Source: Myxococcales bacterium (GTDB lineage Bacteria > Myxococcota_A > UBA9042 > JABWCM01 > BTVJ01). Taken from it: a stretch of DNA of 64,000 nucleotides. The position numbers and the translations under genes are program-made. The stretch lies in the NCBI GenBank assembly GCA_045863395.1, contig BTVJ01000009.1, positions 64,001 to 128,000 on the forward strand. The letters run 5' to 3'. The notes beneath the pieces were generated by a model. The model ran no database searches and was not told the DNA's origin. It saw nothing but the letters and a program-made list of their open reading frames with translations. Positions 9,905 to 33,500 of this stretch are shown piece by piece (position 1 is the first letter of the stretch; each line of letters begins with the position of its first letter).

Positions 9905-12157
9905 TCAGGGCCCGCCGAGGAAGATGGAGTAGTCGTAGTTGACGTTGTTCTTGGCCGACCAGTTGGAGTTGCCGCAGCTCGAGTCGCTGCACGTCTGCGA
10001 CGGGGGCTGGCACGCGTCGTTGCCAAACATTCCTGTCCCGCCGTAGCAGGGCGCCCAGCCGGACTGCGCCTCGGCGCAGGTGCGGACCGTGCCTCCGCCG
10101 CAGTTCGTGCCACCATACGGGCCGGAGCAACACAGGTGCATGTCGTGCCAGTTGCCGAGCCCGCCGCCGTTGTTGTCGGATGGGGTGCCCTGGTGGGACC
10201 CGATGCGGTCGCCGTCCGGCGAGCCCGTCGTGCCGCTCGTACACCCGCCGCCCGTCTGCACGCAGTGGTTCGCGTAGAGGGTGGTGGAGGTGCGCACCAG
10301 CCGCTCGCTCGTCCACACGCTCCCCGTCGAGGAGTTGATCACCGCCGAGCCGATCAGCGTGTTGTCGCCACCCTGCAGGTGCTGGAACATGCTGTCCCCA
10401 TTGGCCTTCGTGAAGCTCTTCCAGCCGCGATAGCTCCCCTGCTCGTGCACGACAACCAGGATCTTCGTCGCGCCGGTGTAGCTGTTCCACGCAGGGCTCT
10501 TCAGATCCGCGCCGAACGGGGCGCTGGCGTTCCCGAACGTCGCGCTGTTGGTCCACGCCGGGTTGCCCCACCACATGGCGTGCCCATCGGACGTGTCCAG
10601 GTTCAGCACGAGCGTCCAGCCGCCGCCGTCGGTGGTCATGTCACACCACACCTGGTAGGCGTCGGTGGTCGGCGCGCCGTTCGGGTCGATCCAGTACGTC
10701 GCATCCCCGTGGGAGTAGCCCCCCGCCTTGATCCCGGCGCACGACGCGCCAGCCTGCGCCTGGGTCCCCCCGTTCGGCGGCGGAGAGTAGATGGCCGCCC
10801 AGGCGGCCCCGTCGCACACCTCGATCTGGGAGCCCGTCCACCGCAGCGCCCCGGCGTTCCCGCTGGTGCAGGGGCCGTTGTCCCCGCCGATGCGGAACGA
10901 CCCGGCCACGTCGAGCTTCGCCGCCGGGGTCGTCGTGCCGATGCCCAGGTTCCCCGACGTCTCCAGGAGCATGAGCGGGCTCGACACGCCGTTCGCCGTC
11001 CACACGAAGGGGCGCCCGTTGGCGACGGTGTTGAACACGAAGGAGTCGTTGTCCACCCACGGCGTGTCTGCCGCCGCCACGACCCCCAACCACCAGCTCG
11101 GGTCCCGCAGGAAGACGGTCGCGTTCGGGTGGTAGCCGTTTCCACCGATGGAGAAGAAGCCGACCTTCAGCGCGCTGGTCGTGTCGATGGACCCGCGCAC
11201 GTCCAGGGCGTTGACCGGCGCCGTCGTGCCGATGCCCACGCTGGTGGTCACCGACAGGATCCCCTGCACGGCGAGGTTGCCGTAGGAGGTCCCCCCGCCG
11301 AACTCCAGCGCGGTGTGGCTCACGCTGGCCGGGTCCGCCGCGCGCACCCGCAGCCCGTTCGACGTATGCAGGGTGACCCACCCGTCCTTGTGGTCGTAGA
11401 GCCCGGCGGCTCCGATGCCGACCGCGCACAGGGTGCCGGTGGCGTTCGTGCAGGCCGCCACGCCGCCCGTGGCCGACACGTTGCCGGCCAGCGCCACGTT
11501 CGCCGCGATGTCGCTGCCCGCGACGCACCCCGTGCAGGCGACGTCCGACGCCGGACCGCCGGCGGTCGCCGCGCCGGCATAGGGGAAGGACACCTTCTCC
11601 GCCGTGACCGCGCCGGCCTGCAGGTGGGGCGTCGCGACGGCACCCGCTGCGAGATCCGTGGGCTCGACGCAGCCCGGGCAGTCCAGGTCGAGGGCAGCGC
11701 CACCCTTGCTCGACGCGCCCGCGTAGAGGAAGCCCACGTCGGCGCTGCCTACGCAGCCCGAGCAGGCCAGGTCCGTCGCGACCAGGGCGGTGTTCGCCCG
11801 CTCTGCGGCCATGGCGTAGGGGACGACGCTCAGGGGGCGCCGCGGCAGCACGTCTCCATCGACGACCGGCTCGAGCCAGAGCGTCGGATCGCCGTTCAGC
11901 AGAGACATGGGCACGGGCGGCAGCGTCACGTCGAAGACGCCACCATCCACCGAGACCCCGGGCACGTTCGCCACGTGCAGGGGCGCGCCGCCGGTCTGCT
12001 GCCCGTAGAACCGGAGCTCCATGCCGAACGTGCCGCTCACGGGCACCCCGGAGCTCGTGAGCAGCGTTCCCTGCACGGACAGCGACGTCGGAACGGCCGC
12101 CAGGGCAGGCGCGGCGGCCACCAGCCACCCTGCCAGGAGCACGGTGATCTTCTTCAT
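9905..12157 (-). CDS. Secreted fibre-like protein with C-terminal fibrinogen-like (YCDxxxxGGGW-type) domain
   Basis: Signal MKKITVLL...ALA with AAGGAGG RBS; three D(L/V)xCxGCV repeats; two (V/L)GIGTTxP..LDV repeats; YWIDPNG...VWCDMTTDGGGWTL. Confidence 0.8.
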   Translation of the reverse strand: MKKITVLLAGWLVAAAPALAAVPTSLSVQGTLLTSSGVPVSGTFGMELRFYGQQTGGAPLHVANVPGVSVDGGVFDVTLPPVPMSLLNGDPTLWLEPVVDGDVLPRRPLSVVPYAMAAERANTALVATDLACSGCVGSADVGFLYAGASSKGGAALDLDCPGCVEPTDLAAGAVATPHLQAGAVTAEKVSFPYAGAATAGGPASDVACTGCVAGSDIAANVALAGNVSATGGVAACTNATGTLCAVGIGAAGLYDHKDGWVTLHTSNGLRVRAADPASVSHTALEFGGGTSYGNLAVQGILSVTTSVGIGTTAPVNALDVRGSIDTTSALKVGFFSIGGNGYHPNATVFLRDPSWWLGVVAAADTPWVDNDSFVFNTVANGRPFVWTANGVSSPLMLLETSGNLGIGTTTPAAKLDVAGSFRIGGDNGPCTSGNAGALRWTGSQIEVCDGAAWAAIYSPPPNGGTQAQAGASCAGIKAGGYSHGDATYWIDPNGAPTTDAYQVWCDMTTDGGGWTLVLNLDTSDGHAMWWGNPAWTNSATFGNASAPFGADLKSPAWNSYTGATKILVVVHEQGSYRGWKSFTKANGDSMFQHLQGGDNTLIGSAVINSSTGSVWTSERLVRTSTTLYANHCVQTGGGCTSGTTGSPDGDRIGSHQGTPSDNNGGGLGNWHDMHLCCSGPYGGTNCGGGTVRTCAEAQSGWAPCYGGTGMFGNDACQPPSQTCSDSSCGNSNWSAKNNVNYDYSIFLGGP

Positions 12158-18600: not shown

Positions 18601-19678
18601 CGGCGCTCAGGGTCGGCGAGCCGTCGAGGGGTGAGCCGGCTGGGACGATTCGCACCTCGACGGTCTGCCCCGCCTGCACGCCAGACACAGAGACGGACAC
18701 GGTCTTCTGGAGTCCTGGGAGCACCGGGTTCTCGTCGTCGGTCGGCCCCAGCACGTCTCCGGATGGGCGCGCGATGGCGTGTATGATCGGCGCGACCCGG
18801 TCCACGAGCACGGTGACGGGGGCCGCCCCGGCCGTGCCGCCAGCCGTCGAGACCCGCGCGTCCAAGGTGCAGACTGCCTGATCGAGCAGACCTACGCCGG
18901 CCCAGGTAACGGACTGTCCGGTGACTGCCGCAGGGAGCTCCGTCACACCCGCGCCGCAGTCTACCGTGATGGTCGCCGTGGCTCCGTCTGCATCCGTAGC
19001 CGCCCCCGCGACGGCGAGGACACAGGGCCCCGGCCCCGGCGCGCAGGCGGCGGACGCGAGATTGAGCACGGCCCCGTCCGCGGGAGACAGCAGGCTGATG
19101 GCGGGCGCGGGCGGGCCACAGGAGAGCCCCTCGTCGGCGAGACCGTCGCAGTCGTCGTCCGCGCCATTGCACACCTCCGGCGGCGGCCCGCCGAGGCTGA
19201 GGCCCAGCGACCGCAGCCAGAACCGATCACGCGCGGCGCAGTGGCCAGCGCCCGCGTGCCGCACCACGACGCGGTCACACCCGGGCGCCGCCACCACCGG
19301 GAACGGCCCGGCAGTCGCCCCCGTGATCTTGAATCCGCAGCCGTTCCAGTCCGGGACCGTGCCGAGGAGCACGTCTCCGGTGGGGCACCGGAGCAGCACG
19401 TCTGCCGACTCGTTGCACTGCGGCTGTGTGAACGGGAGCTGCCCGGTGGCTGTAGTCTGGACGGTCACCTGGTGGAGCGACCCGGGACACGCGCGCGCGA
19501 GCGCCGCGGCCACGAAGACCACCTCCTCCGAGCACGGGAGCCCGCCACCGCAGCACAGGATCTTCGCGCCGTTCCAGCCCTCGCTGCCAAGCTGGAGGTC
19601 CGCGCGGGCGCTGGACCCCTGGGTGGCGCAAACGACGAGGAGCAGCCCTGTCCCGAGACGCACCGATGCAGACATCAT
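15665..19678 (-). CDS. Large secreted Ig-like repeat protein with EVCNG..DDDCDG motif, FN3-like domain and FG-GAP repeats; 3' end frameshifted/truncated
   Basis: GGAGGA RBS before ATG 19678; repeated DxAGN and (V/L)DxxxP Ig-like signatures; VGDVNGDGLPDL repeat; second repeat broken at C4 run 15731-15734. Confidence 0.75.
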   Translation of the reverse strand: MMSASVRLGTGLLLVVCATQGSSARADLQLGSEGWNGAKILCCGGGLPCSEEVVFVAAALARACPGSLHQVTVQTTATGQLPFTQPQCNESADVLLRCPTGDVLLGTVPDWNGCGFKITGATAGPFPVVAAPGCDRVVVRHAGAGHCAARDRFWLRSLGLSLGGPPPEVCNGADDDCDGLADEGLSCGPPAPAISLLSPADGAVLNLASAACAPGPGPCVLAVAGAATDADGATATITVDCGAGVTELPAAVTGQSVTWAGVGLLDQAVCTLDARVSTAGGTAGAAPVTVLVDRVAPIIHAIARPSGDVLGPTDDENPVLPGLQKTVSVSVSGVQAGQTVEVRIVPAGSPLDGSPTLSAALGVTAPDGAPTTVVLGVWTISEAGSRTVEARVADAAGNGDSHLRVISANPSGQVVSILNAPPPGGSCGSSADCGAGVCWLGVCHIPWGIASPKQIQVQTTGVPVGSLVRLCTNLPGVAGPACATPGTVQVGVGALAATAILVGASGAPDGAQTFVAEAQVVPGADVWAASTDAGSTFQSRRVVLDTVAPVVQGITCPSDSLPPAGVLSQADQAAPGTFAFAVSATDGGVPLNGGGQLWVNGQIRQSFPITGGAGTSALDFATDGLKDVRAVVFDAVGNASLAPSSPLSLPSLWLVKVEPLSLTFLSPAGSPALAGAPLDVRLLASEAGATVRLRDGEALIGDTVTGADHQAVFPHATWGALSDGVHVLAAELEDFAGNTATAATLPASIVVDATPPEVTILAPGADLVDADDAQTSKGGFQAAAAISTAGADSWELLVQSGCAPDWSGCGGAILGASGMASGGPEAPVALTLVAPAAESWRRIEARARDAAGNVSTATRDVHLRLSACVLALAGLPADGAIRMADCAEPGCATVARTLLAEWVGPCGDVDLVTLLADGAPIDQAVPADHEAELSVVFAHGAVTSLWAEATIEGAPAAETAPFEVRVDLVPPDVDFVAGDVGGFATPESGAVVVWGAASDRAPASTTSLEGHLRVTMNDGGAGRLSLSAGGLPLAAPVSLPALPGSHDFLWISLPDQATHTVTVTAEDTVGNTTSASFTATVDLSPPEEAVLEPISALDVMPRLPAVTLRWQPPASNTGVPGGPAASYVVRYAREPITSEEDWDAACLATDLPLAPDMPAPGDPLGSLDVLTLRGPDTRSVNATACRWSALPDGMWWFAVRATDGAGNASPVSGGGTVGTDLVRLRVARITHSFSPPAGFPERLDSVVVAVGDVNGDGLPDLALGGGDLSGFCLAFGRDGGGAPLPDIDLDASEGDGGQCILDPGLTGAGTPVANVGRPERRRRGPASSAWARRPQFR

Positions 19679-20177
19679 GGACACATCCTCCATGGAAGTT
19701 GCCGACGTGTGCGAAGCCCCGGGACAGGCGAGGGAGAGGCCCACGCGAGAGAGCCTCCCCCTCCCGAGGGGGATCGGTCTCTGTCCGCGGGGCATGCTGA
19801 GCCAAGGCGCCGGTGCACGACAACCTGTGCCATTCGGCCCCCGCTGCATCCCCGCTGGCAGCCTGGCGAGACCTTGGAAGGACAAGGCCCTGCCTGCGGC
19901 CTCGCCAGACTGCCAGCGGGGCGCATCGGGACCCTCGATGGATCAGGTTGTTATGCACCGGCGCCTGACATGGAGCGCGGAGAGGGCGCGTCAAGTGAGG
20001 TCTGCGCAGAGCGCGCACATTCGACCGGCGGGGAGCGGTGCAGCGCCCTCGTCGGTGTCCCGTGCCGCGTGTCCGAGTCCGCATGGCGTGCGGCCTTTGC
20101 GACACATCCCCGAGGGCGCACCTCCGGCTGAGGGAGACGCGGGCGTCGATCCCGGTGCGCCTCGCCCGATCACACCG

Positions 20178-21521
20178 TCACTCGGGGCAGCTCAGGGGCT
20201 CCTGGGCCGGGGCGCCGGGGAGCACCCGCGAGGCGGCGTGGCGAGCGGCGCTGAGGGCGAGGCGGCCGGCGTCGACGAGGTCGGTCGGCTTCATCTCCCA
20301 GAAGCTGCCGCCGTGCATGTCGTCGAAGAGGCTCCGGTACTGGGCCAGCACCTCCTCGCGCCACGCCGGGTCGATGGTCAGCGCCTTGTCCGCGAACTTG
20401 TGGCACCAGCGGCAGCTCTCGCAGTCCTGGTCGATACAGGAGCGCTCACGGAAGCGGTCGACGAAGCCGTCCATCTTGCGGTTGTCGAGCACGAGCGGGG
20501 ACTCGCCGCGCCGGGGGTAGAGCAGCCCCATGGTGCGCCCGAGCTTCGAGAGCTTCGGCACCTTGGTCACGTTCACCTGGCTCGGCTTGAAGAAGTACTT
20601 CACGGCGCGGCGGAGACTGTAGGCGTCGCGGGACGCCTTGCTCGTGTAGGACCGCTCCGGGTAGTTGAACGGGAGCACCAGGTCGAGCAGGTTGCCGTCA
20701 TAGCGGCGGTTGGCGTAGGCGTGGACCCGGCGCAGCAGCTCCGGCGTCGGTGTGTTGCGCTCCACGATCTTGAAGTTGGTGTAGCCCATCTCCTCGTAGA
20801 TGCGCAGATCCTCGGGGCGGATCCAGTTGGCGCGCACGTAGTTGACCGGCTCGCGCAGGCGATAGTCCAGGCAGAACAGCATGTGGTAGTCGAGGGGGAG
20901 ACTCCCCTTCCGGCCCTTCTGGTGCTGGGAGCCGTGGCTGAGGCTCGACGCGTGAGTCCCGGCGATGGCGCAGTCCTGGCGGCAGGAATTGTTCACGATG
21001 AGAGAGAGGTCGCAGGTGACCGCCTCACGGATGGCGCGGAGCGCCGCGAACTCCCGGGCGAAGGCCACCTCGTTGAGCACGATGCAGTCTGCCCCGTGGT
21101 CTTGCCAGAAGCGGGCTTTGCGGGGACTGTCCGTGAAGCGGTGGGCGCTGATTCGCACCTTGAAGTGCGGGTAGCTCTTCTTGATGAGCTGGAGCAGGTA
21201 GATCTGCCCCACGGTGATCGAGTCGACGCCGATGCCGCTCGCCCAGTCGAGGGTGTCGCGGATCTGGCGGTTGCCCTCGCGGGTGTACTCCGCGTTGCCC
21301 ATGCACGAGGCGTTGAGCAGGTAGTTGAACTGGATCCCCTTGGCGTGGACCTTCTTCACGAAGCGCTCCACGGTGCCGCGGTCGGCCTGGGGCAGGTAGA
21401 ACGAGGGGCGTCCGCCGCCAGCGTAGTCGCGGGTGACCTTGCCGTAGACCTCGTAGACGGGGTAGCCGGACAGGCCCTCGATGAGGGCCTCGTCGAAGTT
21501 GCACGCAACGCTCAGTCGCAC
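20178..21521 (-). CDS. Peptidase U32 family protein (putative Fe-S hydroxylase)
   Basis: FNYLLNASC, GVDSITV, IVNNSCRQDC, FC, WIRPEDL, FKIVER; C-terminal CX4CX2CX2C; GTG start 1 nt after the upstream stop. Confidence 0.8.
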   Translation of the reverse strand: MRLSVACNFDEALIEGLSGYPVYEVYGKVTRDYAGGGRPSFYLPQADRGTVERFVKKVHAKGIQFNYLLNASCMGNAEYTREGNRQIRDTLDWASGIGVDSITVGQIYLLQLIKKSYPHFKVRISAHRFTDSPRKARFWQDHGADCIVLNEVAFAREFAALRAIREAVTCDLSLIVNNSCRQDCAIAGTHASSLSHGSQHQKGRKGSLPLDYHMLFCLDYRLREPVNYVRANWIRPEDLRIYEEMGYTNFKIVERNTPTPELLRRVHAYANRRYDGNLLDLVLPFNYPERSYTSKASRDAYSLRRAVKYFFKPSQVNVTKVPKLSKLGRTMGLLYPRRGESPLVLDNRKMDGFVDRFRERSCIDQDCESCRWCHKFADKALTIDPAWREEVLAQYRSLFDDMHGGSFWEMKPTDLVDAGRLALSAARHAASRVLPGAPAQEPLSCPE

Positions 21522-21522
21522 G

Positions 21523-22665
21523 TCAGGCCTCCAGGTGGGGAGTGGGGCATTGGGGGACGACGCGGACCGGGGCGTCCGCCGCGTCGAGGAGCGTGGTCGC
21601 CCGCCGCGTGAGAGTCTCGACGACCTCCCGCTGGAGCGCCGCGAGCTGCGCCACCGTGATCTGCTGCTCGGCGTCGGAGAGCGCCATGTCCGGGTCCGGG
21701 TGGACCTCGATCATCACCGCCTGGGCGCCGGACGCGAACGCCGCGGCGGCCAGCGGGGCCAGGATGTCCCGCCGTCCGGCGGCGTGGCTGACGTCCACCG
21801 CGACGGGCAGTCGGGTGCGACCCAGCGCCAGCGGGACCGCCGAGAGATCGAGCGTGCTGCGGGTGTCCGGCGAGAAGGTGCGGATGCCGCGCTCGCAGAG
21901 GATGATGTCGTCGGAGCCCGACAGGGCCACGTACTCGGCGGCGTTCACCCACTCGTCGATGGTGGCGCCGAAGCCGCGCTTGAGCAGCACGGGCTTGCCG
22001 GTCTGGCCCGCCGCGCGCAGCAGGTCGAAGCTCGCCATGTTGCGGGCGCCAATCTGGATGATGTCGGCGTAGCGGGCGACCAGGTCTACGTTCTGCGGGC
22101 TCGTCGCCTCCGTGATGGTCGCCATGCCGTGCTCCTCGGCGGCCGCGGCGAGGAGCGCGAGGCCGCGCTCGCCGAGGCCCTGGAAGGCGTAGGGCGACGT
22201 GCGCGGCTTGAAGGCGCCGCCGCGCAGGAAGCGCACGCCGAGCTTGTGCAGGCCCGCCGTCACGCGCGCCATCTGCTCCTCGCTCTCGACGGAGCACGGG
22301 CCAGCCACGTAGCAGGCGGTGCCGGCGCCGATGGTGTGGCCCTTCACGGTGACCACGACGGGGGGGCCTCCCAAAGAGGAGACACGCAGGGTGCGGCGGC
22401 GACCGCCCTCGGCGAGGGCGACGCAGGCGTCGATGATGCCGCGAAACAGGCTGCGGACGGTGGCGTCGTCGAAGGGGCCGTGGTTGTGCTGGAGGAGCCG
22501 CGCCAGGAGCAGGTCCTCCCGCTGGGGGTCCCGCACCGGCATGCCGCGGCGCTGCTTCTCGTGGGCGATGGCGAGGGCCGTGCGGGCGCGCTCGCTCAGG
22601 GTGTCCAGGATCTCCAGGGACAGCGCCTCGATGGTGTCCCGGAGCTCTTCGAGGGGTTCGTTCAT
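21523..22665 (-). CDS. Bifunctional chorismate mutase (AroQ) - DAHP synthase (type I-beta)
   Basis: N-terminal LEELR..I...L.ER...K...RDPQRE; AGPCSVES, RGGAFKPRTSPY, QIGARNM, LCERGIRTF, IEVHPDP; GAGGA RBS before ATG 22665. Confidence 0.9.
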   Translation of the reverse strand: MNEPLEELRDTIEALSLEILDTLSERARTALAIAHEKQRRGMPVRDPQREDLLLARLLQHNHGPFDDATVRSLFRGIIDACVALAEGGRRRTLRVSSLGGPPVVVTVKGHTIGAGTACYVAGPCSVESEEQMARVTAGLHKLGVRFLRGGAFKPRTSPYAFQGLGERGLALLAAAAEEHGMATITEATSPQNVDLVARYADIIQIGARNMASFDLLRAAGQTGKPVLLKRGFGATIDEWVNAAEYVALSGSDDIILCERGIRTFSPDTRSTLDLSAVPLALGRTRLPVAVDVSHAAGRRDILAPLAAAAFASGAQAVMIEVHPDPDMALSDAEQQITVAQLAALQREVVETLTRRATTLLDAADAPVRVVPQCPTPHLEA

Positions 22666-22722
22666 CGTCGGTCCTCGTGGTAGAAGGCTGGTGGCGCACC
22701 AGCGGACGTCTATATACTCAAG

Positions 22723-22755
22723 ACGATTTTTGTATGAAAGAAAAATACACATCGT
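22723..22755. promoter_or_regulatory. AT-rich imperfect inverted repeat in the divergent promoter region (candidate operator)
   Basis: ACGAT-ttt-TGTAT-N9-ATACA-c-ATCGT; TATACT at 22713-22718. Confidence 0.45.
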
Positions 22756-24248
22756 GCGAGCTGGGAATGAAGGAGCTGGTGGAGGCATCCGGCGTGCACC
22801 GGCAGACCATCCACTCGTACCTGCGGGAGGGGCTCCTGCCCGAGCCCTGCGCCGGGGCCGGCACGCGCAACGCCCGCTATGGCATGAGGCACGTGGAGCT
22901 GCTGCGGCTGCTGCGAGAGCTGCGCGACGAGCGGGGCCTGTCGCTGGACGCCATCCGCCGCGCCTTCGAGCGGGCGGCCTTCGACCCGGACACGGCGCGG
23001 CGCGCCCTCGAAGGCGGGCTCCCGCCGTCGCCGCTCTTGCGCCTGGACCCGCCGGAGCGCCTGTCCATGGCGGAGGTCGCCGAGCGCGCGGAGTCCCCGG
23101 TGGAGACCGTCGAGGCGCTCATCGAGGCGGCCGTGCTCGCCCCCGAGGAGGCGAGCGGGCGGACGTGGCTCGACGACGAGGCGGTGGCGGTGGTCGCGGC
23201 GGCACACGCGCTGCACACCCTCGGCGTGCCCGAGGATCGCGTCGTGCGCCTTGCGCAGATCGCCAGGCGCGTCGCCTCCCTGGAGACCCGGGCCCTGGTC
23301 GAGGACGCCACCGGCGCCGCAGAGGGCCACGGGGCGATCCTGGCGCGGGCCGAGGCACGGCACGAGGCGGTGGGGACGCTGATCGACGCCGTGCGCCTCG
23401 CCGCGCTGCACGACGTCGGGCGCCGGCTGGCGGAGGTGCAACCGCGGACGGTCCAGTTCGCCCTCGACGCCATCTACGTGCCGAGCCCGCTGTTCGTGCG
23501 CAGGCACCGCCTCGACCGGGTCGTCGCCAGCGTGGAGGCGGCGGCGGGGGACGGCGCGAGCGCGGCCGACCTGGAGCGCCTCGGGCGTCTGCTGCTCGGC
23601 CTCGGACGCTACGCCGAAGCCGAGCACTGGCTGGAGCGGGCGGCCCAGCTCGACCCGGAGCTGGCGGACATCTGGTCCTACCTGGGCCTGGCGCGCGCCT
23701 TGGCGGGGCGCATCGCCCACGGCCTCGCGTCCTGCCGCCGCGCCGTGGAGCTTGCGCCGCAGTCAGCGCGCGCCTCGGCCTTCCTCGCGGTGGCGCTCGC
23801 CCTCTACGCCGCGACCACGACGGGCATGGGGGAGGCGACGGAGGTGCTCCGGGGCGCCTTGCAGGAGGCCCGCCGCAGCCGCGAGCTCACCCCCCGCGAC
23901 ATGCCGGAGCGCATGGAGGTCATGCTGTCCCGGGGGCGCATGTTCACGGTGCTCCCGAGACCGCTCGGCGACGGCGCCGCAGGCGAGGCGGAGCTCCAGG
24001 AGGTGCTCGCGCGCACGGAGGGCACCACCGACGCGGACAACGGCTTCGACCTCCCGGGCACCAACGAGCTCTACCGGGTGCACGCCCTCTACTACCTGGG
24101 CGTGGCGGCGCGGGACGCGGGCCAGCGAGACGAGGCGAGCCGCCTGCTGCGCGAGTGCATCGTCATCGACCCGGGCAGCCGCTTCGCCGAGCGGGCCTAC
24201 GAGGCCCTCGGGGCGCTGGGGTCGCTTACGTACTCAGCGACGCGTTGA
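22734..24248 (+). CDS. MerR-family regulator with two HTH-like modules and C-terminal TPR-like repeats (start could be 22767)
   Basis: MKELVEASGVHRQTIHSYLREGLLP; second LSMAEVAERAESPVETV; TPR-like LG..LL.LGRYAEAEHWLERAAQLDP. Confidence 0.8.
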   Translation: MKEKYTSCELGMKELVEASGVHRQTIHSYLREGLLPEPCAGAGTRNARYGMRHVELLRLLRELRDERGLSLDAIRRAFERAAFDPDTARRALEGGLPPSPLLRLDPPERLSMAEVAERAESPVETVEALIEAAVLAPEEASGRTWLDDEAVAVVAAAHALHTLGVPEDRVVRLAQIARRVASLETRALVEDATGAAEGHGAILARAEARHEAVGTLIDAVRLAALHDVGRRLAEVQPRTVQFALDAIYVPSPLFVRRHRLDRVVASVEAAAGDGASAADLERLGRLLLGLGRYAEAEHWLERAAQLDPELADIWSYLGLARALAGRIAHGLASCRRAVELAPQSARASAFLAVALALYAATTTGMGEATEVLRGALQEARRSRELTPRDMPERMEVMLSRGRMFTVLPRPLGDGAAGEAELQEVLARTEGTTDADNGFDLPGTNELYRVHALYYLGVAARDAGQRDEASRLLRECIVIDPGSRFAERAYEALGALGSLTYSATR

Positions 24249-24310
24249 CGCAGCCCCCCCGTACCCGGATACTTCCGGACGTTCGTGTCCGATTCCACTG
24301 CGAGGCCCCC

Positions 24311-25237
24311 ATGACCGACATCGCGCCCCGGCTCGACCTCAAGGTCGGGTTCTCCTGCAACAACCGCTGCATCTTCTGCGTGCAGGGGGACAAGCGGCAC
24401 CACATCGGGGACCGCACGACGGACGAGGTGCGGGCCATCCTCGACGAGCGGCGGGGGGCGGCCGAGGGGGTCGTGTTCACCGGGGGCGAGGCGACCATCC
24501 GGGAGGATCTCGTCGAGCTGGTCGCCCACGCCCGCGCCTTGGGCTACCGGACCATCCAGGTGCAGACCAACGGGCGGCGCCTCGCGTACCTGCCCTACGC
24601 CCGGGCGCTGGTGGAGGCGGGAGCGACCGAGTTCTCACCGGCGCTGCACGGCTCGACGCCGGCGATCCACGACCTGCTGACCCGCGCCAAGGGCGCCTTC
24701 CGCCAGGTGGTGCAGGGGATCCAGAACGTGAAGGGCCTCGGGGTGCCCGTGATCACGAACAGCGTCATCGTGAAGCAGAACGTGCAGGATCTGCCGGAGC
24801 TGGCGCGGCTGCTGGTGCGCCTCGGGGTGGACCAGCTCCAGCTCGCGTTCGTCCACCCGGCGGGAACGGCGGAGCACAACTTCGCGGACGTGGTGCCGCG
24901 GTTCACCGACGCCCTGCCCTTCATCCGTCGCGCCCTGGACATCGCCCGGGCCGCGGGTGCGCGCGCCTTCACCGAGGCGGTCCCGTACTGCTTCATGCAG
25001 GGCTACGAGGCGCACGTCGTGGAGGGGCGCATCCCGGACACCTGCGTCGTCGACGCCCCGATGGTCATCGACGACTACACCGAGTACCGCTGGAGCGAGG
25101 GCAAGGCCCACGGGGAGCCGTGCGGGCGGTGCACCTGGGCGCGGGTGTGCGAGGGGCCGTGGCACGAGTATCCGCGGGAGTATGGCTGGAGCGAGGTGGT
25201 CCCCCGCACCGACGATCCGCGGGGCTTCGGCGTGTGA
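24311..25237 (+). CDS. Radical SAM protein with C-terminal Cys cluster
   Basis: CNNRCIFC CX3CX2C, FTGGEAT, QTNGR; C-terminal VPYC...CGRCTWARVC. Confidence 0.9.
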   Translation: MTDIAPRLDLKVGFSCNNRCIFCVQGDKRHHIGDRTTDEVRAILDERRGAAEGVVFTGGEATIREDLVELVAHARALGYRTIQVQTNGRRLAYLPYARALVEAGATEFSPALHGSTPAIHDLLTRAKGAFRQVVQGIQNVKGLGVPVITNSVIVKQNVQDLPELARLLVRLGVDQLQLAFVHPAGTAEHNFADVVPRFTDALPFIRRALDIARAAGARAFTEAVPYCFMQGYEAHVVEGRIPDTCVVDAPMVIDDYTEYRWSEGKAHGEPCGRCTWARVCEGPWHEYPREYGWSEVVPRTDDPRGFGV

Positions 25238-25239
25238 CC

Positions 25240-26613
25240 TCAGCTCAGCGGCTCGAACCGCGAGGTGAAGTGGCGGAGCCGGGGCGCCTCCCAGGTGAAG
25301 CGGTAGCCGCGGAGCGCCCCGCGGGCCTCGTTGACCTCCTCCAGCGCCTCGGCGACGTACTCGATGTGGCTCTGGGTGTAGACCCGCCGGGGCAGCGCCA
25401 GGCGCACCAGATCCACCGGAGGCTCCACGTACTCGCCGGTCGTCTTGTCCGTCCGCCCGAACATCACACCGCCCACCTCCACCGCCCGCACGCCGGCGTG
25501 GACGTAGAGCGCGTTGACCAGCGCGAGGCCGGGGAACTCGCGGAGCGGGATGTGGGGCAACATGCGCCGCGCGTCCACGTAGACGGCGTGGCCGCCCGGC
25601 GGGAGCACCGTCGGTACGCCCACGGACTCCAGGTGCTCCGACAGGAAGGCCGCCGTGCGCACCCGGTAGCGCATGTAGTCCTCGTCGACCACCTCCTCCA
25701 GGCCCTGGGCGATGGCGTCCAGGTCGCGCCCGGAGAGGCCCCCGTAGGTGGGGAAGCCCTCGGTGAGGATCAGCGGTCCGCGGGCGCTCTCTGACAGGGC
25801 CTTGTCCCGGAGCGCCAGGAAGCCGCCCATGTTCACGAGGCCGTCCTTCTTGGCGCTCATGGTGCAGCCGTCCACGTGGTCGAACATCTCGCGCGCGACG
25901 TCGGCGAGCGGGCGGTCGGCATGACCGGGCTCGCGCGTCTTGATGAACCAGGCGTTCTCTGCGAAGCGGCACGCGTCGAGGAACATGGGCACCTTGTGCC
26001 GGTCGCAGACGGCGCGCGCCCCTCGCAGGTTGGCCATGCTGACCGGCTGCCCCCCCGCGGCGTTGTTGGTCACCGTCATGATCACGAGGGCCACCTTGGA
26101 GCCGAGGCGGCCGAGCGTGGCGTCCAGGCGGTCGAGGTCCATGTCGCCCTTGAACGGGGCCGGCTCGTGCAGGTCGGCCGCGGCCGCACAGGGGAGGTCG
26201 ATGGCCTCGGCGCCCCGGGCCTCCACGTTGGCGCGGGTCGTGTCGAAGTGGGTGTTGGAGATCACCACCTGCCCGGGCTCCACCATGAGCTCGAAGAGCA
26301 GGTGCTCCGCGGCGCGCCCCTGGTGGGTCGGGATCACGTAGGGCATGCCCGTCCTGCGCTGCACTGCGGCCTCGAAGCGGTAGAAGCTCTCGCTCCCTGC
26401 GTATGCCTCGTCGCCACGCATCATGGCGGCCCACTGCTCGCTGGACATGGCCGACGTGCCGCTGTCGGTGAGCAGGTCGATCATCACGTCGCGGGCGTGC
26501 AGCAGGAACACGTTGTAGCCGGCCTCCCGGATCCGCGCGCGGCGCTCGTCCTCCGTCGTCATGCGGATGGGCTCGACCATCTTGATCTTGAAAGGCTCGA
26601 TGAGGCTGCGCAT
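25240..26613 (-). CDS. tnaA: Tryptophanase (beta-eliminating lyase family)
   Basis: EPFKIKMVEPI, DLLTDSGT, HQGRAAE, MSAKKDG PLP lysine; LRHFT (His, as in tryptophanase, versus Phe in tyrosine phenol-lyase). Confidence 0.85.
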   Translation of the reverse strand: MRSLIEPFKIKMVEPIRMTTEDERRARIREAGYNVFLLHARDVMIDLLTDSGTSAMSSEQWAAMMRGDEAYAGSESFYRFEAAVQRRTGMPYVIPTHQGRAAEHLLFELMVEPGQVVISNTHFDTTRANVEARGAEAIDLPCAAAADLHEPAPFKGDMDLDRLDATLGRLGSKVALVIMTVTNNAAGGQPVSMANLRGARAVCDRHKVPMFLDACRFAENAWFIKTREPGHADRPLADVAREMFDHVDGCTMSAKKDGLVNMGGFLALRDKALSESARGPLILTEGFPTYGGLSGRDLDAIAQGLEEVVDEDYMRYRVRTAAFLSEHLESVGVPTVLPPGGHAVYVDARRMLPHIPLREFPGLALVNALYVHAGVRAVEVGGVMFGRTDKTTGEYVEPPVDLVRLALPRRVYTQSHIEYVAEALEEVNEARGALRGYRFTWEAPRLRHFTSRFEPLS

Positions 26614-29380: not shown

Positions 29381-30559
29381 ATGGTCCGCTTCGTCCACGC
29401 CGCCGACCTGCACCTGGACACGCCCTTCGAGGGGCTCAGCCGCGTCGCCCCGGAGCTTCGCGAGCGGCTGGTCGATGCGAGCCTGCTCGCTCTCGACCGG
29501 CTGGTGGAGCTGACGTTGGCCGAGCGAGCCGAAGCGCTGCTGCTCGCGGGGGACGTCTACGACGGGGCGGAGCGGGGGCTGCGCGCCCAGCTCCGGCTGC
29601 TCGACGCGACGCGGCGCCTCTCTCGGGCAGGCGTGCGCGTGTTCATCGCCCACGGCAACCACGATCCCGTCGAGGAGGGCTGGTCGGCCGTGCGGCAGTG
29701 GCCGGACGGGGTCACGATCTTTCCGAGCGACCGCGTCGAGGTCCACCGGCTGGTCGCGCGGGACGGCACTCCGTTCACCGTGTCCGGCATCAGCTACCCG
29801 CGGCGGGACGTGCGTGAGAACCTGGCGGCGCTATTCCCCAGGGCGCAAGGCCCTGGCGTCCACATCGCCGTCCTGCACGCCAACGTGGGGTCCCAAGGGA
29901 ACCACGCCCCCTACAGCCCGTGCACCGTCGACGACCTGGCCCGCACGGGGCACCACTATTGGGCGCTCGGGCACATCCACCGGCACGCCTTGCTCCGGGC
30001 GGAGCCGGCCATCGTCTACCCCGGCGTCCTCCAGGGGCGGAGCTTCAAGCCGTCGGAGCTGGGCCCGAAAGGGGCCGTGGTCGTCGACGCGGGCCGGCGG
30101 TGCACCGTGCGCTTCGTGGAGCTGGCCCCGGTCCGCTTCGAGGTCGTGGAGGTGGACGCGGCTGCGTGCGACGACGTGGGGCAGGTGGCTGAGGCCCTGG
30201 CGGCTGCCGCGGAGGGGGGGCGGGTCCTGCGCGCCGTGGTGCGCGGCGCCACGCCAGCCTACGACGCCCTGAGCCGCCCGGAGGCAGGCGACGCGCTCCT
30301 GCGCGCCGTCTCGGACGCCACCCCCGGCGCATCTTGGGCGGACCTGCGCCTCGACGTGCGGCCACCCGTGGACCTGGACGGCCTCGCGGACCGGGGCGAC
30401 CTGCTCGGGGAGCTGGCGGCCCAGGCAGCCGGGCTGAGCGCCGACGACGTGCGCGCCCTGCTGGGCGCCGAGGCGGGGCTCCTCGGGCATGACGTGGGCG
30501 ACCACGCGGAGCTGGTGCGGCGCGCGGCCTGCCTCGCGATCACGCTGCTGGAGGAGTGA
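29381..30559 (+). CDS. Mre11/SbcD-like (YhaO-type) metallophosphoesterase nuclease
   Basis: HAADLHLD, AGDVYD, GNHD, YWALGHIH, YPG.LQGR. Confidence 0.9.
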   Translation: MVRFVHAADLHLDTPFEGLSRVAPELRERLVDASLLALDRLVELTLAERAEALLLAGDVYDGAERGLRAQLRLLDATRRLSRAGVRVFIAHGNHDPVEEGWSAVRQWPDGVTIFPSDRVEVHRLVARDGTPFTVSGISYPRRDVRENLAALFPRAQGPGVHIAVLHANVGSQGNHAPYSPCTVDDLARTGHHYWALGHIHRHALLRAEPAIVYPGVLQGRSFKPSELGPKGAVVVDAGRRCTVRFVELAPVRFEVVEVDAAACDDVGQVAEALAAAAEGGRVLRAVVRGATPAYDALSRPEAGDALLRAVSDATPGASWADLRLDVRPPVDLDGLADRGDLLGELAAQAAGLSADDVRALLGAEAGLLGHDVGDHAELVRRAACLAITLLEE

Positions 30560-30560
30560 C

Positions 30561-33500
30561 GTGCGGATCCTCGGGTGGCACATCGACGGCTTCGGTCACT
30601 TCCAGGGCCACACGCAGCGGGACCTGGGCGCTGGCCTGACGGTCCTCTACGGCCCCAACGAGGCCGGCAAGTCCACGCTGCTGGAGTTCTTCCTCTACGT
30701 GCTGTTCGGCCCGGGGAGGCCGCGGCCCACGCCTCTCGCCGGGGGGAGGCTCGGGGGGCGCCTGTTCCTGGAGGACGGAGGACAACGCCTGGAGCTGGAG
30801 CGCCTGGACGCGCCGCCGGTGCTGCGCGGCGGGGGCGCCGTCCTCACGGGGGACGACGCCGTCCGGGATCGCCTCGGCGGCACGGACCGGGCCCTGTTCC
30901 GCGCGGTGTTCGCGTTCTCGTTGGCCGACCTGACGGGCCTCGACGGCCTCGGCGACGACCAGCTCCGGGACCGGCTCTGGAGCGGCGCCATCGCGGGGGC
31001 CGGCCGCAGCGTGCGCAACGCGAGGAGGGACCTCGACGCCCGCCAGGAGCGCCTGTGGCGGCCGCGGTCCGGGTGCATCATCAAGGACCTCCAGGCCGAG
31101 CTGCGTGCCCTGGACGAGCGCCTCGGCCGGGCGCGAGACCAGGCCCGGCGCGTGCGGGAGCTCCGAGACGAGGTCGGGCGCCTGGAGGACGAGGCGGCCG
31201 GGAGGCGCAGGGGCGCGGACGCCGCGCGGCGCGCCACGCAGCGCTGGGAGGGGCTCGAGCGCGCGTTCCCGCACCACGCCTCGGCCGTGGAGGCGCTGCG
31301 CGCCATGGAGGCCCTCCCGGCGCGGGTGCTGCCCCCGGGGCTGCGCGACGAGCTCGGGCGCCTGCGCCTCGACGAGGCTCGGGCCCGCGCTGCCCTGGCG
31401 GACGCCGAGCGGCGGGCGGAGCAGGCCCGCACCGACCTGGCGGCGCTGGGGGACGACCCGCCCATCCTTGCGCTCGCGGAGCGGGTCCAGAGCGCCGCGG
31501 AGCATCGCCCTCACCTCGGGCTCGGCGACGCAGCGCCCGTGCAGGCCGAGCTCGCCGCGGCGAGGGGGCGGCTCCGCGAGGCGCTGGCCGCGGCGGGGCT
31601 CTCCGACGCGGCGGCGCTGGTGCCCCTGAGCCCAGCACAGGTGGAGCGCCTCCGGGACGCGGCCCGCCGCGCCATGGACGCGGAGGCGGCCCGCGTGCGC
31701 CTCGCTGACGCCGACGCCCGCGTCACGGCGGCGGAGCGGGAGCTCGCGCGGCGCGCGGAGCGCCGCGACGCCCTCCCCCTGGACCCCGACACGGAGGCGG
31801 CGGCCCCCTCCGTCCATGCGCTGCTGGCCGACGAGCCTCGGGCGCAGCGGGCCGCGGCGCGGGTCCGGGAGCTGGACGGGACGCTGGCGAGGGCACGAGC
31901 GGAGCGGGAGGAGGCGATGCGTGCCTTTGGCGGGTGGGCGCCCGCCGGCGGCGAACGCGTCGACCTGACGAGCGTGGACGCCGTGCGCGCCGCGGCCTCG
32001 GCCTGGAGCGTCGCCGCCACCCGGCGCGCCAGCGAGGTCGCCGCGGCAAGCCGGCTCCTCGCGCAGCGGGAGCGTGAGCTGGAGGAGGCGTCGCGGGCCC
32101 TCGTCGCCCTCCCCGCGGCGCCGCCAACACCGGCCTTGGAGGAGACCCTCCGGTCCCTGGAGGCGCGGGCGGAGGGCGCCACGCGCGCCTTCCACCGGGC
32201 CGTCGGCGCCGATGAGGCGGGAGGCCGGGCCGCCGAGCGGCTCAGCATCGCGCTGACCGACCTGGGGCGCTGGTCCGCCCCGTTCGATGCCGCCACCGCC
32301 GGGGCTCGGGCCGTCGGCTCCGGCGCAGGGGGGGGCCGCGAGAGCGACGGGCTCCACGAGGGCGGCGCGGGCGCCTGGCCCGAGGCGCGGCTCGCGGCGA
32401 TCCGGCTCGATGCGGCCCACGAGGCGCGCCTCGCGGGTGCAGCGAGCGCCCTGCGAGAGGCCAGCGCAGCCCGGGAGCGCGCCACCCACGACGCGCACAC
32501 CCGCCGGGAGGACCGGCGGGCCCTGGGAGCGGCCCCGCCCGAGGTTCCCGACCTGGCCCCCCTGCGCGAGCGAGCGACCGCGCTGGCGTGGGCCGAGGTC
32601 GCCGTCCGGGAGCGGGAGGAGGCGCGCCGTGGGGCCAACGGTGGGCCGGCGTGGGTCCGCCCCGTCGGCCTCGCCATCGCCGCGTCCTTGCTCCTCGCCG
32701 CCGTACCCGTCGCCCTGGCGGGCCTGATCCCCGGCGCCATCGTGATGCTCGCCGGGGCCGTCGCGCTCGGCGCCCTCGCATGGCGCTCCGGCCCCCGCGC
32801 TGACGCCGACGCCCCGGAGCGCGCCGCCCGGGAGGCGCTCACGCGAGCCGGCCTGCCGCCGGACGCCGGCCCCGCGGTCATCACCCGGGCGCGGGCCGAG
32901 GTAGAGCAGGCGCTGGCCGAGGGGACGGTGGCCGCGGCTCGTGCCGCGCAGGTGGCCGCGGCCGAGCGCCAGGTGGCGGACGCAGAGCGCCGCCTCGCAG
33001 GCGCGGTGGCCACCGAGAGCGAGGCGCGGAGCGCGTGGGAGCGCGCCCTCGCCCACGCGACCCTCCCGCCAGTGGCGCCGGAGAGCCTCACCGAGCTGGT
33101 CGCCGGCGTCAGAGGGGCGCGCGAGCTCATGGCAGAGCGCGACGTCCAGCGGCGCGTCGCGGCCGAGGCGCGCCGCGAGTGGGACGCGTGGGCCCGCGAG
33201 GCCGCCGTCTCCGGGACGGTGCCCTCCGATCCGACCCTCGGCGCCCGCCTCCTGGAGGAGCTGCGCCAGGGAGCCCGCGCCAGCCGGGAGGCGGCCGCCA
33301 CGCGGCGCCGCCAGGAGCAGGCGGTGGACATGGCTCGCTCCGCCCAGGAGGCAGCATCCCAGGCGCTGCGGGTGGCGGACTCCGACGGAGGGGCGGCGCG
33401 GCTCGAGTCCCAAGCGCGAGCGCGGGCCACGGAGGCAGGGGTGCCGCCCCAGGTCCCCCTGGAGGGGGCGGCAGACTGGCTCTCCCGCGCCGCTGCGCTG

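Follow-up and report, generated by a model that had tools for sequence, protein, structure and literature searches.

The locus described here raises the question of what a U32-family protein does beside a fused chorismate mutase (CM)-DAHP synthase (DAHPS) of its own. The original prediction, drawn from the window (the whole stretch of 64,000 nucleotides that was analysed), was of a prephenate-dependent, O2-independent hydroxylation module, governed by a divergent MerR-TPR regulator and perhaps acting with a radical SAM enzyme on a peptide, an RNA or a small molecule. All four open reading frames are present where they had been placed, and the features of the locus are as follows.

20178..21521, minus strand: U32-family gene, 447 aa, GTG start, PF01136 match over the cut-off
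20403..20438, minus strand: second Cys cluster of U32, within its C-terminal extension, C362-x4-C367-x2-C370-x2-C373
20871..20984, minus strand: putative [4Fe-4S] ligand region, C180-x3-C184 ... H213-x3-C217, from row conservation
21523..22665, minus strand: fused CM (AroQ)-DAHP synthase, type I-beta, 380 aa, NF009239 match over the cut-off
22666..22766, no strand: divergent control region, 101 bp, with an AT-rich core at 22709-22752 and a CATAC element
22767..24248, plus strand: MerR-HTH/TPR regulator, Pfam MerR_1 plus TPR
24245..24273, plus strand: sigma-70-like site, by consensus match only, directly 5' of the radical SAM gene
24311..25237, plus strand: HxsC-like radical SAM enzyme, below-cut-off HxsC4 match

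The finer layout was also as predicted. A single base, 21522, separates the CM-DAHPS stop from the U32 GTG, the radical SAM gene starts 62 bp after the MerR-TPR gene, and the gap between the divergent genes is AT-rich (50% GC over its 101 bp and 25% in a 44-bp core, in surroundings of about 70%). No further shikimate gene was seen among the called genes of the window, inspected by eye. RNA run X5 is fragmented over the U32/CM-DAHPS pair, and its contigs give neither strand nor level.

The U32 protein matches PF01136 over residues 86-174 (38.2 bits, cut-off 22.4) and is the sole such match in a genome that is 97% complete. Its predicted structure (pLDDT 83) is a TIM barrel plus a C-terminal extension, and the best structural match is Mk0906 (5d88), from Methanopyrus kandleri (Z 18.4, rmsd 3.2, 222 residues aligned, 21% identity), ranked first by both Foldseek and VIA-align and also the best sequence match among solved structures (E 7e-9); one of the structure comparisons covered residues 1-274. 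Placement in a tree, which had been proposed as a check, puts the protein outside the characterised clades on a branch of its own, with a long-branch warning; the tree leaves out two very divergent rows (L103:9357 and L108:1325), and a second tree was made from 42 chosen rows. Similarity to E. coli TrhP, UbiU and RlhA is weak (phmmer E 7e-6, 4e-5 and 0.017 in a four-sequence search), and no NCBIfam model matches at E 0.001. An Atlas search returned U32 clusters only, and a cluster look-up gave no named or cultured member. Database names are of the kind 'collagenase-like protease'. The clade may already be listed, function-less, among the 12 subfamilies tabulated in the PMC5727448 supplement.

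A metal site, putatively a [4Fe-4S] cluster, is suggested by conservation in the C180-C217 region, which in the window protein is spaced C180-x3-C184-x28-H213-x3-C217. Across 83 rows, C180, C184 and H190 are each kept in 82 and C217 in all, while position 213 holds Cys in 63 rows, His in 10 and Ser in 8. C180 aligns with RlhA C169, which is essential (PMC5727448, accessible part), and the other ligand positions align loosely. The literal CX6CX15CX3C motif, which U32 oxidases of the UbiU/V, TrhP and RlhA type carry according to the available text of PMC11574389, is absent from the window U32. All four cysteines of the second cluster are kept in 83 of 83 close rows, and this cluster may be an Fe-S or Zn site.

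The partner enzyme scores 437 bits on NF009239, the model of bifunctional CM-DAHPS (cut-off 279), and both Pfam domains, CM_2 and DAHP_synth_1, are found in it; residues R9, R26, K37, R49 and E50, which we take to be the AroQ catalytic residues, are each conserved in 48-49 of the 51 copies aligned. The predicted linkage recurs: of 80 genome loci, 62 have DAHPS/CM immediately beside U32, upstream in 57 and downstream in 5, and DAHPS/CM lies upstream in nine of ten close metagenome loci, the tenth of which starts inside the U32 gene. DAHPS is absent from the examined flanking DNA in 17 of the 80. Genes in these loci were called with a self-trained gene caller whose start sites are approximate, so that gap sizes may be off. 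The genome also holds three other DAHPS genes (C26:53787, C43:46651 and an AroG-type copy at C26:82657), which rejects the possibility that the window copy is the only one, and a second chorismate mutase on contig C107. The window CM-DAHPS is an extra copy that would serve U32 as prephenate source and/or sensor. Because the CM-DAHPS looks dedicated, separate DAHPS and CM genes exist and U32 stands outside the known clades, the reading of a prephenate-fed oxygen-transfer module is sound, and the adjacency in the 62 loci gives genomic support to a putative prephenate-dependent, O2-independent transfer by U32. The further claim that the module boosts its own prephenate supply carries a caveat: such N-terminal CM domains can be chiefly prephenate-sensing regulators (PMC5526877, in the part available).

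The likely acceptor of the oxygen is indicated by the relatives, whose gene context points to squalene and sterol synthesis instead of the peptide or RNA first suggested. Of the 80 U32 loci, 38 contain an oxidosqualene cyclase (OSC) gene, which in 27 directly follows U32 downstream, with a 4-nt overlap in ten of these (starts being approximate). HpnC/D is encoded in 22 loci, FPP synthase in 18, HpnE in 12 and at least one isoprenoid gene of any kind in 45; the OSC-bearing loci often also hold squalene and mevalonate genes. The locus cyclase is of OSC type, with 766 bits on TIGR03463 (below that model's cut-off of 851) against 254 on the SHC model, and the catalytic motif of the 38 cyclases is DCT[AGS]E in 36, with two truncated and DxDD in none. 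A DCT[AGS]E motif rather than DxDD points to an epoxide substrate.

The same association is seen in whole genomes, where 77 of 80 with U32 contain OSC, as compared with 33 of the 301 genomes sampled from the phylum. Squalene epoxidase (SQE, PF08491) was found in only 35 of these 80, all uncultured MAGs of unstated completeness in which a gene not found need not be absent, and it was not found in 36 of the 38 genomes with OSC in the U32 locus. PF04116 proteins, which we take to be the superfamily of AltSQE, an O2-dependent enzyme of the fatty-acid-hydroxylase family, were rejected as a general substitute, there being none in 33 of the 45 SQE-negative genomes. A heme-copper oxidase match is missing in 23 of these 45 as compared with 1 of the 35 SQE-positive genomes, and a CYP51-like gene occurs in none of the 45 as compared with 9 of the 35. 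Judged by gene content, the SQE-negative genomes look more anaerobic, although the heme-copper-family match in the other 22 counts against an oxygen-free reading. In described genomes SQMO is 'almost always flanked by' OSC (PMC8237579 supplement, accessible part). With SQE replaced by U32 beside OSC, we infer that U32 forms 2,3-oxidosqualene from squalene.

Close U32 genes are patchy in the phylum sample (14 of 301 genomes) and track OSC, being found in 5 of 7 genomes with OSC and no SQE detected, 6 of 26 with both and 3 of 268 without OSC; 11 of the 14 assemblies apparently recur in the 80-locus set, and the samples are not independent. A phylogenetically independent test comprised five pairs and was underpowered, without significance (median p 0.25). 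Two OSC-positive, SQE-negative genomes gave no U32 match (G205, with a partial OSC, and G270, with a divergent one).

We consider it probable, on these patterns of gene content, that the U32 protein acts as a squalene epoxidase that supplies OSC and depends on prephenate rather than on O2. U32 would oxygenate squalene to 2,3-oxidosqualene without O2, replacing the flavin SQE, while the co-transcribed CM-DAHPS would draw carbon into the shikimate pathway to maintain prephenate, probably being shut off by prephenate when U32 is idle, and the resulting epoxide would be cyclised by OSC, giving cycloartenol or lanosterol. In the SQE-less and often oxidase-less bacteria the U32 route would be the only one, giving unmodified protosterols; in the window genome it would be a low-oxygen back-up beside SQE. 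An isolated alkene is harder to oxidise than an aromatic or heteroaromatic ring; the terminal alkene would lose two electrons through the clusters, capture the hydroxide that prephenate gives off on aromatising to phenylpyruvate and CO2, and close to the epoxide. This chemistry is adapted from the UbiUV proposal (PMC10990095), and the characterised U32 reactions covered in the available text of PMC10990095 and PMC11574389 are all hydroxylations of aromatic or heteroaromatic rings. The analysis establishes which genes these are, how they are linked and how they co-occur; iron-sulfur binding, oxygen donation by prephenate, the squalene substrate, the epoxide product and use at low oxygen are predictions. 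The broader proposition, that true sterols (cycloartenol, lanosterol) are formed wholly without O2 in bacteria, some of them probably strict anaerobes, with U32 taking the epoxide oxygen from prephenate, falls only slightly on the likely side.

The linkage data fix the pathway and not the reaction, and U32 could act elsewhere in triterpenoid synthesis, with the epoxide coming from an unrecognised enzyme or not being needed: OSC might accept a hydroxylated squalene, the 3-OH might be added after cyclisation, or U32 might tailor sterols. Such roles would keep to hydroxylation, the known U32 chemistry, and a GGR-like flavoprotein is encoded in 13 of the 80 loci, all SQE-negative. This explanation is nevertheless unlikely, since the motif of the linked cyclases points to an epoxide substrate and one would hardly look for an enzyme of sterol tailoring in the place of SQE next to OSC, where U32 stands in 36 of 38 genomes; the GGR-like protein was not found in 23 of the 45 SQE-negative genomes and is rejected as a general SQE substitute.

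A second and more doubtful alternative concerns the window's own lineage. The window genome carries OSC, P450, ERG24-like and SdmAB-like genes on contig C26, where the AroG-type DAHPS adjoins the sterol genes, and SQE on C65, as well as a CYP51-like gene and heme-copper oxidases; its OSC is thus on another contig than U32. The motif of this OSC is VSDTTAE and not the XXDC treated as needed in the available text of PMC8237579; the protein still scores 744 bits on TIGR03463 and clusters with DCTAE cyclases, and sterol genes surround its gene. The nine-member window subclade (branch support 100 SH-aLRT) has His rather than Cys at position 213, U32 is beside OSC in none of its members, and all have SQE; these points and the motif of the window genome's OSC also weigh against the favoured reading, as do the cyclase-free genomes named next. 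It is conceivable that an ancestrally sterol-linked U32 drifted in this subclade to another lipid substrate, as it apparently has in the cyclase-free family f24: three phylum genomes of one family (G147, G294 and G347, 96-100% complete) carry a close U32 gene and no cyclase, and among them the G294 copy is split and the G147 copy is preceded by a B12 radical SAM gene, and sister U32s at 34-43% identity are located in B12 radical SAM clusters. Yet OSC is present in the window genome and in all eight other subclade genomes, far from the phylum-wide 33 of 301, other SQE-positive branches that keep Cys213 are likewise apart from OSC, and the window U32 retains 53-60% identity to the 38 OSC-linked homologues. 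Nesting of the subclade inside OSC-adjacent lineages was not recovered in trees that leave the base of the clade without resolution.

It is very improbable that U32 replaces SQE but draws its oxygen from traces of O2 or from water and that the DAHPS link has another cause. The 22 SQE-negative genomes with a heme-copper-family match and the 17 loci without DAHPS in the flanks would fit, but the 62 adjacent pairs come in two different gene orders, a lone chorismate mutase flanks even a distant sister U32 (L109), and prephenate is the oxygen donor for UbiUV (PMC10990095, accessible part). Less credible again is a role as a true protease or as a hydroxylase of RNA or quinones akin to RlhA, TrhP or UbiUV; PF01136 membership, the protease names in databases and the single U32 gene in the genome are in its favour, and the separate branch, the weak similarities and a patchy distribution that tracks OSC speak against it.

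The divergent genes are rare or absent beside the U32 pair elsewhere. The regulator has MerR_1 at residues 1-68 plus TPRs in Pfam; of the 'double HTH' ascribed to it the first is confirmed, and the second is plausible, unscored by Pfam and covered by a below-cut-off FtsR match. Among 80 genome loci two have the gene next to the U32 pair, and among 13 metagenome loci one; in place of the module regulator once proposed it seems to be a local accessory, confined to part of the window's U32 subclade. The CATAC element recurs in three relatives, which likewise have the MerR gene (four-region alignment), and RNA-library contigs from two studies terminate at 22654-22696, a weak hint. The radical SAM protein scores 175 bits on HxsC4 (cut-off 500), its best match, and 102 on HxsC (cut-off 268). 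Two MerR-sharing relatives have copies 69-72% identical on other contigs, and the G044 copy (69%) is two genes from an above-cut-off HxsB; no HxsB is in the window, nor in the examined flanks of the G048 and G041 copies. The gene is preceded by the sigma-70-like site (one found, 0.1 expected in shuffles) and is probably a stray component of a His-Xaa-Ser system. A RiPP context was also rejected, as no small ORF recurs beside the U32 pair (clustered neighbours, genes of at least 40 aa), and U32 was not found in the RiPP literature searched. That U32 and the radical SAM enzyme, controlled by the MerR protein, jointly modify a peptide, an RNA or a small molecule, as their adjacency here and the likeness to peptide-modifying HxsC might suggest, is scarcely credible and the partnership is rejected, given its absence from all 80 genome and 13 metagenome loci, the unlinked orthologues (one beside HxsB), the promoter-like site and the lack of a recurring precursor peptide.

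The enzyme class is already known, and the implied sterol pathway is without description in the searchable literature: no paper on U32 and sterols was found in the literature searched (subscription journals and bioRxiv supplements being out of reach), nor was 'U32' in the supplements of PMC8237579, PMC7306690 and PMC12414744. The O2 need of squalene epoxidation is the reason that steranes are read as oxic markers and the origin of sterols is linked with rising oxygen (PMC4919349, PMC7306690, PMC12414744, in their available parts), and uncultured OSC-bearing myxobacteria have been called aerobic because of their sterol genes (PMC8237579 supplement, accessible part). An anaerobic sterol pathway was raised as an open possibility in PMC4919349, and the U32/CM-DAHPS pair makes that question directly testable. 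If the favoured reading is true, this would be the first squalene epoxidase to work independently of O2 and the first case of epoxidation by a U32 enzyme, extending U32 chemistry from ring hydroxylation to alkenes; protosteroid biomarkers and the origin of OSC would be uncoupled from the presence of O2, and sterol or triterpenoid production by anaerobic fermentation could become possible.

With UbiU-UbiV of E. coli, the prephenate-dependent ubiquinone hydroxylases that need no O2, the window U32 shares the family, a lipid substrate (predicted here), prephenate as proposed oxygen donor (PMC10990095, accessible part) and the co-existence in one genome with a flavin monooxygenase route to which it offers an alternative, as aerobic UbiIHF is found beside anaerobic UbiUV. 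Unlike that heterodimer, the window U32 is a single protein, no paired paralogue being found in the 97% complete genome, and it has an extra four-Cys C-terminal domain, another Cys spacing, its own CM-DAHPS and a presumed isolated-alkene substrate and epoxide product. With RlhA and TrhP it shares the barrel, and C180 aligns with an RlhA cysteine; RlhA also requires C-terminal cysteines and prephenate, and is defined with a C-terminal DUF3656 (PMC5727448, accessible part), which the window protein lacks in Pfam (PF01136 only). It further differs from both in having no curated-model match, in its branch apart from E. coli TrhP and in the sterol-gene context of its relatives. The predicted reaction and the position beside OSC in relatives are those of SQE/SQMO (PF08491) and AltSQE (PMC7306690, PMC8237579, available parts), from which the window U32 differs in being of unrelated fold and cofactor; SQE needs O2 (PMC7306690, PMC12414744, available parts). 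No Pfam match to the PF08491 SE domain, of FAD monooxygenase fold, was obtained, and the likeness to squalene epoxidase is in working, not in membership. Mk0906 (PDB 5D88), the nearest solved structure by fold and sequence, is a 254-aa protein of no known function, without the C-terminal extension. The CM-DAHPS has the architecture of the Bacillus/Listeria/Geobacillus fusion (PRK12595) and matches over the cut-off; that fusion is a housekeeping enzyme, whereas the window enzyme appears to be an extra copy dedicated to U32.

The four genes lie where the original prediction had placed them:

20178-21521 (-), U32-family protein, 447 aa
21523-22665 (-), fused chorismate mutase-DAHP synthase (CM-DAHPS)
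22767-24248 (+), MerR-TPR regulator
24311-25237 (+), radical SAM protein

The U32 gene scores above the Pfam PF01136 threshold, its product matches none of the NCBIfam models, and the nearest structure to the predicted model (pLDDT 83) is Mk0906, itself an uncharacterised U32 protein. The upstream CM-DAHPS fusion exceeds its curated cut-off and is separated from the U32 start by 1 base; Pfam finds the MerR HTH and TPRs in the divergently oriented gene, and the radical SAM gene is HxsC-like with a score under the cut-off. The host assembly is 8.8 Mb and 97% complete, and the nearest named homologues are in Myxococcota MAGs. Near-identical sequence was found in sludge metatranscriptome runs from two studies. 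RNA-library contigs from three runs across these two studies each extend from 19939 or 19985 to 22654-22696, exactly covering the U32/CM-DAHPS pair, while a fourth run is fragmented over it, and these contigs give a weak hint of a single transcript. The gap between the divergent genes contains, within 22709-22752, a CATAC element that is invariant across four MerR/DAHPS gaps; in the three relatives it takes the form CATAC-N6-TGTATA (an ATAC-N7-GTAT dyad), with a spacing that differs from that in the window. A tryptophanase-family gene (25240-26613 (-); NF009709, 660 bits) is convergent with the radical SAM gene, 2 nt away from it, and was not seen to recur among the neighbours, and further along (29381-35228 (+)) a metallophosphoesterase-like gene, so judged by eye, precedes a 1556-aa AAA_27/SMC-like protein.

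Conservation of this arrangement was assessed in 80 loci from GTDB genomes (the best 80 of 122 relatives, at 53-79% identity) and in metagenome loci. The recurrent linkage that had been anticipated is borne out for one partner and fails for the other. A DAHPS/CM gene directly adjoins U32 in 62 of these best 80 loci; in 57 of them it is upstream and in the other 5 downstream. Of 10 close metagenome loci, 9 have it upstream. The radical SAM gene accompanies U32 in 0/80 genome loci and 0/13 metagenome loci. In five records with Bacteroidota titles (L044, L050, L053, L060, L087) U32 precedes DAHPS, a reversal of the order. The MerR-TPR gene stands beside the pair in 2 of the best 80 genome loci and 1 of 13 metagenome loci, and the two genomes that share it carry radical SAM copies, 69-72% identical, on other contigs, one of them two genes from an HxsB scoring above cut-off. 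HxsC-like radical SAM genes form several other clusters in the window's own genome (G000:C9:148957-155575, C15:6954-10543 and C12). The regulator slot upstream of the pair varies across loci L011-L090, being occupied by a sensor kinase (33 loci) together with a sigma-54 response regulator (26), by a Crp-type HTH protein in 4, all in genomes with squalene epoxidase, or by MerR-TPR in 2, and these variable regulators are candidates for oxygen or redox control. A DUF3419 protein follows two-component genes in 10 loci (L039:5311-6498 and nine more). The pair's fusion is not the only DAHPS in the window's genome, a point that the original prediction had asked to check: two more type I-beta copies are present (contigs C26 and C43), along with an AroG-type DAHPS on C26 and a second chorismate mutase on C107.

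When genes were called and clustered over the best 80 of 122 loci, the most frequent neighbour after DAHPS was a 650-aa cyclase, which lies inside 38 of the 80 and directly downstream of U32 in 27, with a 4-nt overlap in ten; in 12 that downstream position is taken by a GGR-like flavoprotein. The oxidosqualene cyclase (OSC) model gives the linked cyclase 766 bits and the squalene-hopene cyclase model 254, and DCT[AGS]E is present in 36 of 38 (the other two are truncated), DxDD in none. Two residues ahead of the Asp stands Ile in 30 copies, Val in 5 and Thr in 1; by the rule given in PMC4919349 for this position, the product is predicted to be mostly cycloartenol. Also recurring among the best 80 are HpnC/D (22), FPP synthase (18), HMG-CoA synthase (16), HpnE (12) and IDI-2 (11), with at least one isoprenoid gene in 45. 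The route from mevalonate through squalene to OSC is complete, with U32 occupying the place of the epoxidase. A DUF116 protein follows thiolase/HMG-CoA synthase genes in 7 loci, and in locus L033 OSC, the O2-dependent squalene epoxidase (SQE), a squalene-synthase-like gene and U32 all occur together.

Genome-wide searches detected OSC in 77 of the genomes behind these best 80 loci, the exceptions being G080, G105 and G092, the last with weak cyclase matches only. SQE (PF08491) was found in 35 of these 80, a number that may be an over-count since the PF08491 model rings weakly in E. coli too. Among the same 80, genomes with OSC inside the U32 locus divide into 2 with SQE and 36 without, and those with no OSC inside it into 33 with and 9 without; 6 of these 9 have isoprenoid genes in the U32 locus. 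A match to heme-copper oxidase was lacking in 23 of 45 SQE-negative genomes vs 1 of 35 SQE-positive ones, and a search with the P450 of the window's genome, which we take from its context to be CYP51-like, found a similar gene in 0/45 vs 9/35. PF04116 proteins were not found in 33 of the 45 SQE-negative genomes, nor a GGR-like protein in 23, and these absences rule out either as a general substitute epoxidase. An even sample of the phylum (301 genomes) contained OSC in 33, SQE in 29 and close U32 in 14, the last in 5 of 7 genomes with OSC and no SQE, 6 of 26 with both and 3 of 268 without OSC; these figures serve as base rates rather than independent replication, since 11 of the 14 appear to be assemblies already among the 80. 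The genomes are kin and not independent, and an independent-pairs test yielded 5 pairs with a median p of 0.25.

Close U32 without a triterpene cyclase occurs in three genomes of one family (L104:5310-8100, L105:9714-11084, L106:1737-3011), where one of the copies is split and another comes after a B12 radical SAM gene. Two genomes have OSC and neither SQE nor U32; in one the OSC is a contig-edge fragment and in the other it is divergent. The window's genome belongs to the group with both routes, U32 and SQE. Contig C26 carries OSC, P450, ERG4/24, SdmB-like and SdmA-like genes; C65 has SQE adjoining an HpnN/BstA-like transporter; C89 has IDI-2, HMG-CoA reductase, a prenyl synthase and an HpnD-like gene whose score below cut-off makes squalene synthase there only probable. 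Heme-copper oxidases are present. The window U32 belongs to a branch of nine members; every one of their genomes has OSC and SQE, and in none does OSC lie in the U32 locus. Its function is therefore assigned by homology (53-60% identity with the OSC-linked copies) and co-occurrence. Throughout this branch the putative third Cys ligand is replaced by His, and the OSC of the window's genome has VSDTTAE in place of XXDC; DTTAE instead of DCTAE is found in full-length OSC-type cyclases of this genome (L098:5585-7558) and of a same-order relative (L117:9525-11450). In the genome's own sterol cluster the P450 gene is immediately followed by the AroG-type DAHPS (L098:1658-2728; G000:C26:82657-83727), and of 12 other OSC regions retrieved, 2 have a DAHPS gene close to OSC (L119:12-596, L117:12135-12869), one of them in G001, a genome where U32 was not found. 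DAHPS near sterol genes apart from U32 is a second, unexplained shikimate-sterol link.

As expected of the undescribed pathway first proposed, the U32 protein lies outside the characterised clades, branching apart from E. coli UbiU, UbiV, TrhP and RlhA in a tree that drew the tool's long-branch warning. When 1.84 billion representatives were searched with a profile, three scored 751, 624 and 503 bits, above a long tail from 441 down, and the close clade is therefore tight. In locus L029 a pair of U32 copies is separated by about 8 kb (10001-11287, 18919-20355), the second aligning over residues 211-409 only. Sister U32s at 34-43% identity (genomes G029, G032, G343, G303; regions L100-L103, L107-L109) retain both Cys sets, are sometimes tandem with up to five per genome, and neighbour B12 radical SAM, membrane and, by eye, carbamoyltransferase-like genes; in L109 a lone chorismate mutase adjoins one. 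No OSC was near sister U32s in regions fetched from six genomes, which limits the sterol reading to the close clade, and the sister family probably represents another prephenate-dependent pathway.

C180, C184, H190 and C217, with a second set at C362/367/370/373, are nearly or fully invariant across 83 close rows, and C180 aligns with the essential C169 of RlhA (PMC5727448). In the proposed mechanism prephenate would be bound or activated by one cluster at the barrel mouth, electrons would be relayed by the second, and the terminal alkene of squalene would be converted to the 2,3-epoxide. For UbiUV, PMC10990095 names prephenate as the oxygen donor and proposes that the substrate is oxidised by two electrons, the oxidant being unknown, and then captures hydroxide from prephenate aromatisation. 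A CM domain in fusion with DAHPS can have weak catalytic activity and act as a brake that senses prephenate (PMC5526877), and the fused DAHPS may be active whenever prephenate is drawn down. No transmembrane segment is seen in U32, where the highest hydropathy over 19 residues is 1.25; residues ~295-312 form a basic amphipathic helix that, speculatively, could dock it on the membrane.

The original interpretation is partly upheld, with the radical SAM enzyme removed and a specific substrate added: the best explanation, which we hold to be rather probable, is that U32 is a prephenate-dependent, O2-independent squalene epoxidase feeding OSC. No U32-sterol link was found in the literature and supplements searched, which include few subscription journals. 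In these papers squalene epoxidation is treated as O2-requiring (PMC4919349, PMC7306690, PMC12414744), squalene epoxidase almost always flanks OSC (PMC8237579 supplement), and the U32 substrates listed are ubiquinone and RNA only (PMC10990095, PMC11574389). The enzyme would be of a known kind, implying an O2-independent sterol pathway that is undescribed, and, if this is true, a standing assumption would be overturned.
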